From the IMG/VR virus record IMGVR_UViG_3300019874_000003: 20,000 nt of DNA; one strand, written 5' to 3'. The position numbers were made by a program, and so were the translations under genes. Each line of letters starts with the position of its first letter. The first letter of the stretch is position 1. Below are positions 8,668-16,338 of this stretch, piece by piece. The DNA is from an uncultured virus (IMG/VR IMGVR_UViG_3300019874_000003) (lineage: Duplodnaviria; Heunggongvirae; Uroviricota; Caudoviricetes). The notes beneath the pieces are model-generated. The model saw only the letters and a program-made list of their open reading frames with translations, had not been told where the DNA came from and did no database searches.

Positions 8668-9177
8668 GTGCAGGCCCCGGAGGCACTGTTCCACGGCTCA
8701 AAGGCTCGACTCGAGGTCGGCGCCGCGCTTCACGCGCGCCGTACACCGAACGGAACCTTCGGGAAGGGTCTAGAGACGTTTGTCGAGTCGCTGCGACCGC
8801 CAAAGTGCTCGTCGCGGCTCGAGTCGTTCTACATGGTGGATGACCCTAGGTTGATCCGTGTAGCCGGTGGGGTGCAGAACTTCATCTACCGCCTCGAGCC
8901 GTTCGGCATGTTCTCGAAGCATAATCAGGGCTGGTTGAGTCGGATCTACGACGCGCTGATCTATCACTTCATCGGTCGCGAGGTGCTCAGCGGGGACGAG
9001 CTTCATGGTCGCCTGCGTGCAGCGGAGGCGTGGGCATGGAAGTACTGGGACGGGTCGCCGTGTCCGGATCTGCGCCCGCCCAATGTGGAAGTGTGGGAGT
9101 ATCTGGCATCGGACGTGCTCGTCGTGGCATGCGAATACAACGGCGAGTGGTGGTCCGCGGACATCGAAGAGGAGTGA
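8668..9177 (+). CDS. ADP-ribosyltransferase-fold protein (Arr/DUF2441-like)
   Basis: LFHGS..L.VG, E.LRP...SRL.SFY, IYRLEP.G, KYWDG and WEYL motifs. Confidence 0.6.
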   Translation: MQAPEALFHGSKARLEVGAALHARRTPNGTFGKGLETFVESLRPPKCSSRLESFYMVDDPRLIRVAGGVQNFIYRLEPFGMFSKHNQGWLSRIYDALIYHFIGREVLSGDELHGRLRAAEAWAWKYWDGSPCPDLRPPNVEVWEYLASDVLVVACEYNGEWWSADIEEE

Positions 9178-11219: not shown

Positions 11220-11630
11220 CTACGCAGCCTGAGCGGTGACCATACGAATGCGCTCCCATGCCAAAACCGGGTCCGCGCTCGCCCAGAACGCGAGTGCCGA
11301 CCGCGTGGCACCAATGCCGGCGACCTCGAGAACGCCACGGGCCGCCGCCGCCAGAAGCTCCATGGCGTAGACGATGGGCGCTGCGTTGACGCCGAACGGT
11401 ACCGGCAACGTGCGCAGGCCGCTTGACCATGACTGCTCATGCCGCGCGAGGTCTGCACATGCGCGCTGCATCACATCCGGGCCGCACCGGTCCGCGACCA
11501 GGCGGACAACGCCAAGCAGGCACCGCGCCGCGCCACGTGCGGTGACGGCATCCGGCGGCGACACATCCACTGCGAGCGCCATGGAGCGGAGGTCGTCGAT
11601 GTTGTTCTTCCAGTGCGCGATCGTGGGCAT
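11220..11630 (-). CDS. Hypothetical helical protein
   Basis: ATG at 11630 with AGGAG RBS and an upstream promoter. Confidence 0.65.
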   Translation of the reverse strand: MPTIAHWKNNIDDLRSMALAVDVSPPDAVTARGAARCLLGVVRLVADRCGPDVMQRACADLARHEQSWSSGLRTLPVPFGVNAAPIVYAMELLAAAARGVLEVAGIGATRSALAFWASADPVLAWERIRMVTAQAA

Positions 11631-11658
11631 CTCAGGTCTCCTTCTGGGGGTTCCTCGC

Positions 11659-11711
11659 AAGATGGAGGCGCGGCTGCGCCATGTCAAGTCATAACTTGCC
11701 ACTGTCAAGTC
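11659..11711 (-). promoter_or_regulatory. Sigma70-like promoter with direct repeats
   Basis: TTGACA (11687-11682)-N17-CATCTT (11664-11659); TGTCAAGTC repeated at 11682-11690 and 11703-11711. Confidence 0.5.
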
Positions 11712-11755
11712 GGCCGCAGCCGACGACCGCACGTCCTGGTGATTGGGGTACCAGG

Positions 11756-12304
11756 CTACCGTCGAAGCCTGCCGAACACGGACGACGCGAGGCCGATGCC
11801 GTCCACGCCGGATGTAATCACGCCGACCAGATGGCCGTTGTCGTCGTAGAGCGCGGCGCCGGAGTTGCCGGGTACAGTGCGGATGTCCAGCGCCAGATCG
11901 ACCTCACCGTGAGGCGTTCCCACGGGGCGTATCTCGGTGATGTGACCGCAGCGACGTTCCCTGGCCGGCAGCGCAACCTCAGCGCATACGGCATCGCCGA
12001 CGTCCGCGGCATCGGTCACGGCTTCATCGCCGTGAAGGTCGGTGACCAGCAGTGCCAGGTCGTGGCCGTCGTCCCGCCAGGCGAGGTGATGAGCGGACAG
12101 GAGTTGGCCCACATCGGTTGTGATGGCAGAGCCGTCACATGCCACGTGGCTCGCGGTGAGCACGAATCCATCGCCGATATCTGCGCCGCTTCCACCGCAC
12201 GGCTCAAGCGCCACAGCCGCAGCGTGCTGTTGCTGGACGGTCCATGCCGGCGGCGGTTCGATGTGAGCATCGTCATAGGTACAGCCACAGACAAGTGCGG
12301 CCAT
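11756..12304 (-). CDS. Trypsin-like (S1) serine protease, lipoprotein-like
   Basis: Catalytic triad motifs VLTASHV, HDLALL and PGNSGAAL..G.LVGV; lipobox-like LVCGC; true start uncertain. Confidence 0.85.
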   Translation of the reverse strand: MAALVCGCTYDDAHIEPPPAWTVQQQHAAAVALEPCGGSGADIGDGFVLTASHVACDGSAITTDVGQLLSAHHLAWRDDGHDLALLVTDLHGDEAVTDAADVGDAVCAEVALPARERRCGHITEIRPVGTPHGEVDLALDIRTVPGNSGAALYDDNGHLVGVITSGVDGIGLASSVFGRLRR

Positions 12305-12339
12305 TATCGCTAAGCTTAACCTTAGTTCGCTAGGTCTCG

Positions 12340-12738
12340 ATTTCGATCGATCGGGCATCGAGCAGCCATTGTTATATCGAGAGGTCGTAACGGTCACGTC
12401 TTGTTTGGCCTGTCTCGATCGTTCTGGCATCGAGCAGCCATTGTTACCGCCGAGCTCGCGCACGCCCACCGTGCGAGCATGATCGTCTCGATCGATCGGG
12501 CATCGAGCAGCCATTGTTACATCGGCAATCTGCGCGAGCTGCGAGGTGATCTGATTGTCTCGATCGATCGGGCATCGAGCAGCCATTGTTACAACTGTTG
12601 CCAACGGCGGGAAGCTCTCAGATTGCTGGTCTCGATCGATCGGGCATCGAGCAGCCATTGTTACCCGCGTAGGTCTCGCGTCATGAGCGAACCACCTTCT
12701 ACGTCTCGATCGATCGGGCATCGAGCAGCCATTGTTAC
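12340..12738 (-). CRISPR. CRISPR array, 6 x 36-bp repeats, 5 spacers (36, 37, 36, 36, 38 bp)
   Basis: Repeat (+) GTCTCGATCGATCGGGCATCGAGCAGCCATTGTTAC at 12340 (3 mismatches), 12412 (2 mismatches), 12485, 12557, 12629 and 12703, with unique spacers. Degenerate copies at the low end imply - strand orientation. Stem CTCGAT/ATCGAG near the 3' end. Confidence 0.97.
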
Positions 12739-12778
12739 AGCGGGTTGGAAATATCGTGTCATCTCGCTGAGATACAAC

Positions 12779-13717
12779 TCAGGTTTCGAGCGGTCTGGTC
12801 GTTGTGCTCGCCGAACGCGCCGTTCGCAGACGCTGCGACCGAGATGGCTTCGCGATCGCCGACTTAGCGGTGCGAGCGGTCTCCGGAGTCTCCTGCGCAT
12901 TGGCCCACTCGAGTAGGAGATTGCGGCAGGCATTCGCATCCTGGTCGACACGCAGGCCGCACGCCGGGCAGGTACGCTCACGCCCGGTGTTGACGGACTG
13001 GTCCCACGCCTCATCGACATGACCGCAACTGTAGCACCGGCGGGTCACGTCGTTGGACGACATCTTCTCGACGCGGCCGTGGAACGCGTTCATGAGCACC
13101 TGACGAAGCTCGCTACCAGCGACCAGGCTTTGGTTGTTCTTCACGAGCGGGATGCCGTCGACCTCCTCGGACTCCGGGGCCGGCGATCGCTTGAGCTCGG
13201 CGAGGTCGGTATCGTCGATCACCAGCGTCCGATAGCGCTGGCAGAGGTTGGAGGCCAGGATGCGGTAGCCCTCCCGGCGGCGCAGGAGCGCCCGGCGGCG
13301 CATCCCGGTCTCGTATGGCTCAAGGTGGTTGTCGCGGTAGCGCCAGGCATCCAAGGCTTCATACCCAACCTCGTCACCGTGGAAGCGCGCCACGCGCCAG
13401 CGCTGCGCGAGCTTGCGGAACCGGTCCGCCGAGCGCCAGGCGTGCAGGTGCGGCTTGATCTCCGCCAGCCAGGGCGGCAGCGCCGGGCCGCCAGCGCGGA
13501 TGTACGCTCCGACGCGGCCCCATGGGTGGTCGGCACAGGCGATCGGGATCGGTGCGGGAGCTGATGCGGTCGTCACCCCTCGCTGCAACCGCGACGACCA
13601 CCAACGCAGCGTACCCACCTTGATTCCTTCACGCGCCGCGAACACCGCCGCGGTCTCGCCACTTGCTCTCCACTTCGCGACGCGTTTCTGCCAGGTGACC
13701 TTCGCTGCATTTGCCAT
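12779..13717 (-). CDS. Fusion: IS66 TnpA N-terminus (aa ~1-60) + C-terminal half of a Cas12m/type V-U1-like TnpB-family effector
   Basis: HLHAWRS..F..LA.RWR, AWRYRDNHL..YE...RRRALLRRRE.YR, RuvC-II-like LVIDDTDL, Zn finger CYSC/CPAC and RuvC-III DQDANACRNLL; no RuvC-I, WED or REC region; adjacent to the array. Confidence 0.8.
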   Translation of the reverse strand: MANAAKVTWQKRVAKWRASGETAAVFAAREGIKVGTLRWWSSRLQRGVTTASAPAPIPIACADHPWGRVGAYIRAGGPALPPWLAEIKPHLHAWRSADRFRKLAQRWRVARFHGDEVGYEALDAWRYRDNHLEPYETGMRRRALLRRREGYRILASNLCQRYRTLVIDDTDLAELKRSPAPESEEVDGIPLVKNNQSLVAGSELRQVLMNAFHGRVEKMSSNDVTRRCYSCGHVDEAWDQSVNTGRERTCPACGLRVDQDANACRNLLLEWANAQETPETARTAKSAIAKPSRSQRLRTARSASTTTRPLET

Positions 13718-13778
13718 CGGATCTCACCGTGCCGTCTCCCGCGCGATCGCGCCAGAACGCTGTTCGTGCAGCGGATAC
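13538..13778 (-). mobile_element. IS66-family left-end remnant
   Basis: Begins GTATCCGCTGCACGAAC at 13778 (IS66-type terminus). An ATG 61 bp inside encodes W.KRV..WRASGETAAVFAAREGIK..TLRWW..RL (TnpA HTH). No tnpB/tnpC or right end seen. Left boundary approximate. Confidence 0.75.
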
Positions 13779-14734
13779 CCCGAGATGGCGCGCGACAGCC
13801 AGCGCCGTCTCGCCCGCGTCTTCCGCCAGCGTTGCCTGCGTACGCCGCAACGCCTGGGGCGGCAGCACCGGCACCTTGGCGGCGTCGGCGATGCGCCGCA
13901 CGTGGTTGTAGGCCATGTACCGCGACCACCGCCGTCCGGCGGGCCAGCGCCGCGATGCCTCCGACACGAACAGCGGCGCATCACCCGGCCGGCCCTCCGC
14001 GAGCGCCAACAGGTACGGCCGGAGCTCGTCCGGAATCAACAGCCGGCGCGTCCCCGCCCCCGTCTTGGTGCGACCGATCCACAGTAGCCGGCCTTCATCG
14101 TCCAAGTCGCGCACGTCGCGCTTCACCAGCTCCGAGGCGCGCGAACCGAGCAGCAGATACGCCAGCGTGATCACCGCGCCAGCGTCGGTCGCGGCGTACT
14201 TGTGGCAATGTGCCTGCAGCTGCCGCGATTCATCGACGGTCAGACGTGGCTTGTCCGCACCTTCGACCTTCCGACCCACGGCCTCGACCTCGGCGAACGG
14301 GTTCGCCCGGAGCATCCGCTGCTTGACGCACCAGGCGCCCCAGTCCTTGGCGACCGCGAGCGCGTTCTGGTGCGTGTCGGCCGCGCGCGGCTTCCCCTCC
14401 CGGCGATGCCCCTTCGGGTAGACCCGGGCCTGCACGTAGAGCTCGGCGCCGCGGCCGAGAACCGCGCGCACCGGGCGCGGCATCAACGGCCCCAGGATCA
14501 TCGCGAGCCGGTCCTCGGCGCTCTCCACGCTGGACTCCGCCAGCTCCCGCTCGCGCTTCCAGGCGAGGAACCGGTCGACAGACTGCTTCACGGTGACGCC
14601 TTGCGCCTCGTCACGCGCCCCGGCGATGAACGCGTCGGCAAGATCCCGCGTTGCAAACGTCTGATAAAGCGTCTTCCGTTTTCCTCCGCGTCGAGTAACG
14701 ACGTGGACGCGGAACTGGTTGAAGTACTCGTTGG
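13779..14734 (-). pseudogene. Tyrosine recombinase/integrase, truncated
   Basis: LLGSRASEL (R), TKT (K), PQALRRT and ARHLG are present, then the sequence switches to the IS66 end with no catalytic Tyr. The frame extends upstream of GTG 14591 through an arm-binding-like segment without a start codon. Confidence 0.8.
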
Positions 14735-15655
14735 CTATTCGATCGACCCTTGTGCGATAGCCTTAGTGGCGGTGGGGAGGTCAGCGGCGATTTGCACGTC
14801 TGCTTCCTCGGGCGAGTACTGGTCCAACATCAAACGAGTCGTCGCAACGTAGTCCGCAACCGAAAGGTTAGTGACGTTGAAAAACGCGACGCGGATGTCT
14901 ACGACAGAGCCGCCCTTAACGACCACAACATCATTCAGCCAACCACTGAGAATTGCCTCTGCCTCGGCAGTGAATTCGATGGTCGAGCTGACGATCAACA
15001 AGAAATCGATCGTCATGCTCGAAGCGGCACCTGATGAATGGAACCGGATTTCTTCGATGTCGTTGAGTAGCTGTTTAAGCTTTGTGGTCTCGGCTTTCTC
15101 CTTCTCGCGCTTCTTCATCACGGAGTCGAGGGACTTCACGATCTGCTTGTGAACAGCCTTGACGATGTGGTCGGGGATCGCGGGGCGATTGTATCGCCCC
15201 GCGACCCACTGAGCGAAACGAAGCCGCTCCGGATCAGTAGAGAACACCGTCGCGAAGCCTACAGCGACAAGAGACTCCTTTCTCAGGTGCGCTCGGCGTC
15301 TCGCATCAGCAAGCAGTGCCCGCTCGTTCGCCTCAGTGAGCAAGAAGAGACGCGACGAATTGCCCTTCCGAGCTTGTAGGATTTCGGTCGGGTCAGTTGA
15401 CCAACGTGCTGTTACGACTTCGACGCACGGCTCAACCTCAGGACGTGCGTAGATGTCGCAGTCTTGTGAAACGAGGACCCACTCAGCATCAGTGTCAGCT
15501 TCGATCTTGGCGACCCACTTCGGCAGAGCGTTTGGCTCGTCCTCAGTATCCGTCTCCAGCCACAAGGTATGTGCTGCAGTCTTCACAAGAGATCCTTGGC
15601 GGCACCCGCGGGACAGAAGTACTTCTCCGACACTTTGGCTTTGTGGGCTCGGCAC
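14735..15655 (-). CDS. Conserved-looking hypothetical protein (RQGS / SQDCDI / RYNRPAIPD motifs), candidate toxin or defence protein
   Basis: 306-aa ORF, visibly lower GC than its flanks, GAGG RBS, 8 bp downstream of the HTH gene. Confidence 0.75.
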   Translation of the reverse strand: MPSPQSQSVGEVLLSRGCRQGSLVKTAAHTLWLETDTEDEPNALPKWVAKIEADTDAEWVLVSQDCDIYARPEVEPCVEVVTARWSTDPTEILQARKGNSSRLFLLTEANERALLADARRRAHLRKESLVAVGFATVFSTDPERLRFAQWVAGRYNRPAIPDHIVKAVHKQIVKSLDSVMKKREKEKAETTKLKQLLNDIEEIRFHSSGAASSMTIDFLLIVSSTIEFTAEAEAILSGWLNDVVVVKGGSVVDIRVAFFNVTNLSVADYVATTRLMLDQYSPEEADVQIAADLPTATKAIAQGSIE

Positions 15656-15663
15656 TCAATACC

Positions 15664-16338
15664 TCATTTCACAGACTCGTCGTCGTCCTCGAATTGCGCC
15701 GAGGGACTTAGTCTCTCGCGCGCCAGCCGACGCTCGAACACACTCATCGATGGTTGAACCATCGGTGCCTTGACTTGCGAGAAACCGGACATTGGCGAAC
15801 CGGCTCTAACGACTAGCCCACGGAACACAGAAAACTGTTGCTCCTTGATGTACTGCAGCGGGGACTTCCCCCCCGCTGCGATGGGCGTGCGGAGCCAAGT
15901 CGGGAGATCGATGATTCCGTCGAGCTTCTTCTTTGCGTCCTTAATGTGATTGAGCGCTTCCACTAGGTGCGTGAACGCTTCTTCCCGCGGCGTAGCTCCT
16001 TCCATCCAGTTGTAGAAGGTTGTCCGTGACACACCGAAGACCTGAGCGAGCTGTTGGGGAGTAAGACGAGAGGCCGTCCGTAGCTCCTCGGCGGCTGTAA
16101 GAATTTCGTTCTTGCGAAAGTGCGTAACGTTCGCCGGTGAAATTCGTCGCTGCTGCTTCACGATCACAAAGGCATCATCGCCGTCCCAGCTGTCGGTCGC
16201 CCAGCCGTTGACGCGAAGCACGCCCTGGCTGCCGCCGATCTGTTTGTCGAACGCCTTGAGCAGTAGCCGCTCCTCGTCGATCTCCGGATCGAACCTGATG
16301 GCTAGCTTGCCGTCGATCTCGATGAAGGTTGCGCGCAT
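15664..16338 (-). CDS. XRE-HTH protein with an Xre/MbcA/ParS (DUF2384)-like C-terminal domain
   Basis: LRTASRLTPQQLAQVFGVSRTTFYNW (HTH) and WLRTPIAAGGKSPLQYI. Confidence 0.75.
   Translation of the reverse strand: MRATFIEIDGKLAIRFDPEIDEERLLLKAFDKQIGGSQGVLRVNGWATDSWDGDDAFVIVKQQRRISPANVTHFRKNEILTAAEELRTASRLTPQQLAQVFGVSRTTFYNWMEGATPREEAFTHLVEALNHIKDAKKKLDGIIDLPTWLRTPIAAGGKSPLQYIKEQQFSVFRGLVVRAGSPMSGFSQVKAPMVQPSMSVFERRLARERLSPSAQFEDDDESVK

Follow-up and report, generated by a model that had tools for sequence, protein, structure and literature searches.

Very probable recent inactivation of a type V-M (Cas12m) CRISPR locus on a phage-like mobile element

Type V-M CRISPR-Cas12m systems, represented by MmCas12m2, GoCas12m and MsCas12m, were formerly known as V-U1. 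In the description of Cas12m2 that is given in PMC10442227, the RuvC site is formed by H317, D485 and D579, the PAM is read by Y141, W152, N156, Q195 and Q197, the contacts with the crRNA scaffold include those of H12, R245, H269 and R270, and the scaffold itself consists of a pseudoknot and a stem. The orthologs covered by Bigelyte et al. (PMC11013384), with D-E-D, H-D-D and N-D-D triads, are described there as binding DNA in a PAM-dependent manner and as not cutting it; as far as these two accounts go (PMC11013384, PMC10442227), DNA binding without cutting is known for the characterised Cas12m orthologs only. Carriage by phages has also been described: a preprint on the myxophage MV-1 (bioRxiv 10.64898/2026.09.14.751636) presents a phage Cas12m with an array, which it terms the first, and we have found a further case in the GenBank record KX853510 (Virus Rctr197k, Caudoviricetes; locus L095, 2819-6252), whose 622-aa homolog (E 7e-91) is 35% identical over the full length and is encoded 34 nt upstream of a CRISPR region, annotated as such, with at least 17 repeats that end in …CTGAGAC. 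The effector gene of KX853510 is annotated merely as "similar to transposase"; it is full-length, has the D-E-D residues and is part of a phage-borne V-M locus.

The stretch of DNA that we have analysed, hereafter "the window", is 20,000 nucleotides long and lies on a contig of 76,447 nt. We conclude that it very probably carries a recently inactivated type V-M (Cas12m) CRISPR locus on a phage-like mobile element; the features of the locus are listed in Table 1. As in the described type V-M systems, the coding sequence aligns with Cas12m at RuvC-II, at the TNB zinc finger and at RuvC-III, its RuvC-II residue is an Asp (cf. D485 of Cas12m2), and it is directly followed by an array, with no adaptation genes nearby; the 36-nt repeat has a pseudoknot and a stem, comparable to the Cas12m2 scaffold as described in PMC10442227. 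The window copy differs from the described effectors in that it is without the first ~375 residues and has an IS66 TnpA N-terminus instead, and it differs from Cas12m2 in its zinc ligands, which are CCCC in the window and HCCC in Cas12m2. With MV-1, as the preprint presents it, and with KX853510, the window shares a virus-borne effector and an adjacent array without cas1, cas2 or cas4, but the effectors of those two viruses are full-length and D-E-D, whereas the window belongs to an N-D-D lineage, its copy is truncated, and its phage nature is argued entirely from gene content and synteny. The Cas12m family, its N-D-D triad, the structure of its repeats and its carriage by phages are already described; what is new here is a base-precise, recent inactivation, together with intact relatives that make up a syntenic lineage in soil.

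Table 1. Positions, in the window, of the array, the chimeric reading frame, the insertion sequence fragment and the interrupted integrase gene.
Feature	Position	Strand	Remarks
CRISPR array	12340..12738	-	six 36-nt type V-M-style repeats and five spacers; from the repeat search
Array repeat units	12340-12375, 12412-12447, 12485-12520, 12557-12592, 12629-12664, 12703-12738	-	
Gap between stop codon and first repeat	12739..12778	-	40 nt; tight gene-array layout, as in intact relatives
Chimeric 312-aa ORF (P0001)	12779..13717	-	IS66 TnpA HTH N-terminus in frame with a Cas12m C-terminal part
cas12m 3' remnant	12779..13545	-	~residues 377-631 of an intact 631-aa relative, plus stop codon
RuvC-III residue D260	12938-12940	-	aligns with D579 of Cas12m2
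RuvC-II residue D168	13214-13216	-	aligns with D485 of Cas12m2
IS66-family fragment	13546..13778	-	233 bp; 61 bp upstream of tnpA and tnpA codons 1-57/58 of 108
Tyrosine integrase gene	13779..14762	-	cut after codon 271 (…ARHLG)

A preliminary description of this DNA had pointed to six repeats lying 40 nt past the stop codon of a co-oriented open reading frame (ORF) and, in the product of that ORF, to a TnpB-type zinc finger, a RuvC-III motif, the letters VIDD with an Asp at RuvC-II and an Arg/Trp-rich helical insert. All of these are present: the repeat search and the ORF coordinates place the array as described, and the 312-aa product, P0001, contains VIDDTD (RuvC-II), a CxxC...CxxC zinc finger (C228, C231, C250 and C253), DQDAN (RuvC-III) and, at about residues 80-160, the Arg/Trp-rich helical stretch, which is conserved in the family, with three invariant Trp residues (W402, W426 and W444 in P0006, an intact relative). 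When compared with all PDB chains, residues 80-268 of P0001 match residues 381-568 (of 577) of the Cas12m chain 23vw_A with an E value of 1e-27, and further Cas12m chains are also matched (Cas12m2, E 6e-10; 8pm4, E 1e-8); the best natural chains outside Cas12m reach E values of 0.014 (Cas12f) and 0.08 (TnpB). P0001 has in common with TnpB, including that of IS200/IS605 and IS607, the zinc-ribbon/RuvC-III core (Pfam PF07282, 30 bits), but it differs from these proteins in being accompanied by an array instead of an omega-RNA and transposon ends, in having the Cas12m-specific Arg/Trp-rich helical region, and in scores that are far below the cut-offs: three NCBIfam TnpB models give 18.3, 25.5 and 26.9 bits (cut-offs 425, 350 and 100, respectively). 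A grouping with ordinary TnpB, which the preliminary description had named as evidence against its own reading, is not what these scores give; judged by the alignments, the retained part of P0001 is of the Cas12m type and not an ordinary TnpB, and in this respect the earlier assignment stands.

What is retained is the end of a longer protein. Residues 57-312 of P0001 are identical at 254 of 256 positions (99%) to residues 376-631 of the 631-aa P0006, which aligns over its whole length with Cas12m structures (E 4.7e-59; residues 28-610 of 8pm4) and has the complete WED-REC-RuvC-TNB architecture of ~600 aa that P0001 does not have. A tblastn search of the window with P0006 returned residues 376-631 only, the next match having an E value of 0.03; WED, REC1/2 and RuvC-I are missing from P0001 and are found nowhere else in the window, so that the six-repeat array is orphaned. 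Of the three-part RuvC site, RuvC-II (D168) and RuvC-III (D260) are present and the RuvC-I segment is deleted, while the Cas12m2 residues listed above for PAM reading, scaffold contact and RuvC-I all map N-terminal to the retained part; by analogy with Cas12m2, we infer that the 312-aa chimera would be unable to form the RNase H fold, to read a PAM or to hold the crRNA scaffold. Among 5.8 billion proteins, only two of similar length (171-546 aa) match P0001, one being P0001 itself and the other a protein of 324 aa from a 1190-nt contig, against 42 longer relatives (593-845 aa); there is, therefore, no conserved short form of Cas12m.

The N-terminal part of P0001 belongs to another family. Its residues 8-61 pass the NCBIfam model of the IS66-family accessory protein TnpA (NF047593; 37.9 bits, cut-off 28), and its residues 1-59 are identical at 56 of 59 positions (95%) to a 108-aa protein that also passes the IS66 TnpA model; since the later residues match Cas12m, P0001 is a chimera. 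Its residues 1-58 and the preceding 61 bp correspond to the 5' end of the 108-aa TnpA genes of IS66 elements, from which the window differs in keeping just 233 bp, without tnpB, tnpC or a second end; the scanned window ORFs gave no match to tnpB or tnpC, and no target duplication is visible. In a single-sequence AlphaFold model of the chimera (mean pLDDT 42.5), the HTH is the only part that is predicted with confidence, so that the model carries no information on the Cas12m part.

In order to place the two joints, the contigs of four public runs (called here X1, X3, X4 and X5; the independent runs are from soil) have been compared with positions 12300-14700 of the window. A Logan contig of 6144 nt from X1 agrees with the window at every base from 12710 to 14700 and crosses both joints; X1 is probably the source sample, so that the assembly is a separate one but the DNA is not. 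A contig from X3, which belongs to another study, equals 13183-13545 with 1 difference and is then unlike the window; its continuation, on the minus strand, reads …EAHDKAVAI, i.e. P0006 just upstream of the break, which places one joint at 13545/13546 and means that an intact allele exists elsewhere. The pieces from X3 differ from the window at 2 positions in 760 nt, one of them synonymous and the other corresponding to the E/G difference in the comparison with P0006; since the intact allele differs so little, the break is recent. The second joint is located at 13778/13779: a contig of 1088 nt from X5 matches solely 13545-13778, with both flanks unlike the window, and continues with …IPMVQL…, where intact TnpA reads …IPM, while a contig from X4 matches 13779-13945 and differs before 13779, where it continues with HATAAA, like intact integrases. 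The boundary recurs as an end of homology in the X4 and X5 studies, and it thus behaves as the end of an IS element in several contexts. The contigs of X4 and X5 give no cover over cas12m, and cover by the public-run contigs is absent over 12381-12542, i.e. over most of the array.

These homologies and both joints are observed directly; the order of events that we infer from them is an IS insertion followed by a deletion. An IS66-family element would have landed in the 3' end of the integrase gene (joint 13778/13779), and a later deletion, with almost no microhomology, would have joined tnpA codon 57/58 to cas12m codon ~377 (13545/13546), taking away the rest of the IS, any intervening DNA and ~375 codons from the start of cas12m, with WED, REC1/2 and RuvC-I. 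In its intact state, for which near-identical and more distant relatives provide the model, the locus would have had a ~630-aa N-D-D Cas12m gene with its own array immediately behind it. If it acts like the characterised orthologs, the transcript would be processed into crRNAs, each with a repeat handle and a spacer, and matching DNA would be silenced by PAM-dependent binding without cutting, a capacity that would help a mobile element to keep rivals out. The letters of the locus are, by themselves, no proof of its death: the reading frame is open across the joint, its GC3 of 0.81 is gene-like, and four of the repeats are perfect, but a recent event looks alike.

The interrupted integrase has been examined at the same joint. 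Its Pfam match breaks off at position 138 of a profile of 172, and the homologs found by an exhaustive HMMER search align to ~residue 271-279 and then continue for 27-40 residues. At the point where the window diverges, GH is found in all 11 aligned homologs, and in 10 of them …(S/A)Y follows; the window has …HLG/VSAARTAFW (the slash marks the joint), without the conserved His of LGH and without the catalytic Tyr (…RSY). The complete catalytic set of a tyrosine recombinase (last His/Trp, Tyr nucleophile) is not found in the window, and the ability of the element to integrate or excise may be lost. At the other end of the gene, the conserved N-terminal region (14592-14762) begins directly after a stop codon and contains no ATG, GTG or TTG start; a tblastn search with the integrase gave no match in phages. 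Another interpretation of the divergent tail, a tandem duplication of an HTH shared by the integrase tail and the head of the ORF, has been rejected: the DNA similarity is negligible and the protein score weak, and the alignment shows that the tail is an IS end that is read in the integrase frame.

The repeats of the array recur with a period of 72-74 nt and enclose five spacers of 36-38 nt, all of them different. Four of the six repeats are exact, and repeats 5 and 6, which are the furthest from the ORF, are degenerate, with 2 and 3 mismatches. A search of the window at up to 3 mismatches returned the six array units and no other copy, and none of 200 shuffled windows gave any repeat match. 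Folding of the minus-strand repeat reproduces the 3' stem-loop of the preliminary description; its energy alone is not better than that of shuffles (z -0.28), and the stem-loop is supported by covariation, not by fold energy. As regards the targets of the spacers, a blastn search of phages and plasmids with the array gave only matches with E values of 1 or higher, and nothing beyond chance 13-19-mers was found in the window itself or in 94 homolog loci; the viral contig collection contained neither an exact copy of the repeat nor relatives of P0006. No sigma-70-like promoter was found by a scan that is ill-suited to high-GC hosts, the single terminator-like site is at chance level, and no Rfam families or tRNAs were found. 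The degenerate end of the array is abutted by a gene for a trypsin-like serine protease (11756-12313, minus strand; Pfam Trypsin_2, phrog_9683), which has no counterpart in three syntenic loci, L024, L025 and L030; the next gene shared there is the homolog of window positions 11220-11732.

The linkage of this type of repeat with this type of effector has been observed in the 94 homolog loci, which were collected from genome and metagenome collections and do not include the contigs of P0006 (99%) and of another relative, P0007 (80%; 633 aa, on a contig of 79 kb). Among the 75 loci whose downstream sequence extends for 250 nt or more, a k-mer scan found an array of at least three repeats, beginning within 400 nt downstream, in 36, which is a lower bound, as two-repeat mini-arrays escape it; the link between the repeat and homologs of the ORF, the lack of which would have spoken against the preliminary description, is thus found. 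In the relatives, the array begins at most a few hundred bases from the end of the homology match, and the repeats, 36 nt long, have the ending …GAGAC or …GCGAC, as the window repeat does. An alignment of 30 repeats from relatives and the window repeat (31 in total; of the 36 loci with an array, six were left out: L035 and L087, whose repeats are unusually closely spaced, and L043/L044, L056 and L094, whose repeat was already represented by another locus) gives a pseudoknot of two helices, in which positions 7-11 of the window repeat pair with 20-24, and positions 14-19 pair with 29-34. Pairing is present in 84% of the cells, compared with 30-47% when the partners are slid, and 10 of the 11 pairs show compensatory changes, a covariation that is reached by 0 of 500 shuffles, with the structure being derived from the same 31 sequences on which the covariation was scored. 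The window thus has, next to the ORF, an array with the 36-nt structured repeat of the Cas12m family, and on this comparison of repeats the window repeat belongs to the Cas12m effector family.

At the RuvC-I position, the full-length relatives have Asn in 22 of 24 cases (…ALNLG…) and Asp in 2 of 24, so that the lineage is N-D-D; the identity with the plasmid-borne homologs of the plasmid collection is ~24-30%. On metagenome contigs of 45-86 kb, counterparts of the window's proteins lie in the same order beside intact cas12m genes, downstream of cas12m in L024 and L030 and upstream of it in L040, L041 and L080, and these contigs carry similar phage-type DNA-metabolism genes. In the window, the family scan covered 36 of the 169 ORFs of at least 50 aa, and 11 of these 36 match PHROG families; among the proteins matched are mycobacteriophage GP88 (Pfam E 4.5e-25), a nucleoside deoxyribosyltransferase (1e-47), a methyltransferase, an HNH-like protein, the trypsin-like protease and the integrase. 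Neither capsid, portal or terminase genes nor housekeeping genes were found among the scanned ORFs; no match to the Cas1, Cas2 or Cas4 families was found among them either, in agreement with the earlier statement that the window has no adaptation genes. A phage-like element is, on the basis of gene content and synteny, well supported; of the preliminary claim that the locus is phage-borne, the phage-like setting is kept, and a phage as such is not proven.

The preliminary description had gone further and had read the 312-aa protein as a working minimal effector for RNA-guided silencing and possibly as the first of a new clade related to Cas12m. Such a reading, which draws on an open, co-oriented ORF at 40 nt from the array and on the preserved RuvC-II, zinc finger and RuvC-III, we regard as extremely improbable: at 99% identity the protein repeats the last 256 residues of P0006 (631 aa), it begins with IS66 TnpA codons, it is without RuvC-I, WED and REC, and it has no family of its size among 5.8 billion proteins. 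As for the clade, the relatives align over their full length with solved Cas12m (the E value above rounds to 5e-59), and the N-D-D triad is already among those characterised in the work of Bigelyte et al. (PMC11013384). It is also very unlikely that the joints are misjoins, by the assembler, of an IS copy, the integrase and cas12m from different molecules, even though the data come from a metagenome of modest depth (~7x word depth) and IS elements are a frequent source of misassembly; the separate Logan assembly of X1 crosses both joints without a difference in one 6144-nt contig, there is at 13545 practically no repeat common to the parental sequences by which an assembler could be misled, and the boundary at 13778 recurs in X4 and X5, as is expected of a true IS terminus.

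Another explanation, to which we assign a low probability, though not the lowest, is that the array is still in use: it would be transcribed, from the IS tnpA promoter or together with the chimera, and a full-length Cas12m that uses this repeat too, coming from the host or from a co-resident related element, would take up its crRNAs in trans, so that the locus would be a satellite array. The four perfect repeats and the unique spacers are consistent with such use, as are the circulation of the intact allele, different at 2 of 760 bases, in another soil sample and the presence of related elements with intact cas12m at the same syntenic position. On the other hand, a second cas12m was not found in the window, the scan for promoter-like sites (ill-suited to high-GC hosts, as mentioned) found none, the phage and plasmid collections gave no target for the spacers, and the X1 contigs are here all of the broken form, with the reservation that contigs can drop rare variants. 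Somewhat less probable still is the idea that the orphan array has been retained, perhaps together with the HTH-Cas12mC chimera, because it exploits or interferes with the full-length Cas12m of closely related co-infecting elements; if this were true, the array would free-ride on the effector of the relatives with its own spacers, or the array or the chimera would soak up or poison that effector, like a repeat-RNA or Cas-fragment anti-CRISPR.

Under the reading that we prefer, i.e. a recently inactivated Cas12m locus, the window would be a clean natural example of the loss of a class 2 CRISPR locus on a mobile element, with the damage to the integrase and to the effector both accounted for by one IS66 element. 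The intact relatives form a lineage of phage-like elements from soil in which an N-D-D Cas12m and its array occupy a conserved position; this lineage is of use as a source of compact DNA-binding effectors and as a system for the study of competition between elements. In genome scans, orphan arrays that are located beside truncated cas genes should not be counted as minimal systems.

Some additional observations concern the surroundings of the locus and the arrays of the relatives. A low-GC island is located at 14500-16000 of the window (57-58%, compared with 63% for the window and 70% for the integrase); it contains a 306-aa ORF without a family match and an HTH protein (15664-16338), and no homolog of it was found in the related loci. 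A full-length homolog of 42% identity is encoded on contigs of ~85 kb in L040 (5591-7432), L041 (10001-11851) and L080 (10001-11845), where another ORF lies directly downstream of the effector and no array was detected at that place. The array of L087 (3949-4135) has periods of 57-62 nt and spacers of ~21-26 nt, and downstream of the effector in L029 and L025 there are short, irregular repeat-like units that end in …CGCGAC or …GGGAC; these odd arrays may be degenerate or mini-arrays. In L022, at ~8870-8960, a two-repeat mini-array that escaped the three-copy scan adjoins a 42%-identical effector on a contig of 81 kb, and its repeat, GT·TCAATAGCTGCTCGATG…ATCGAGAC, is very close to that of the window.
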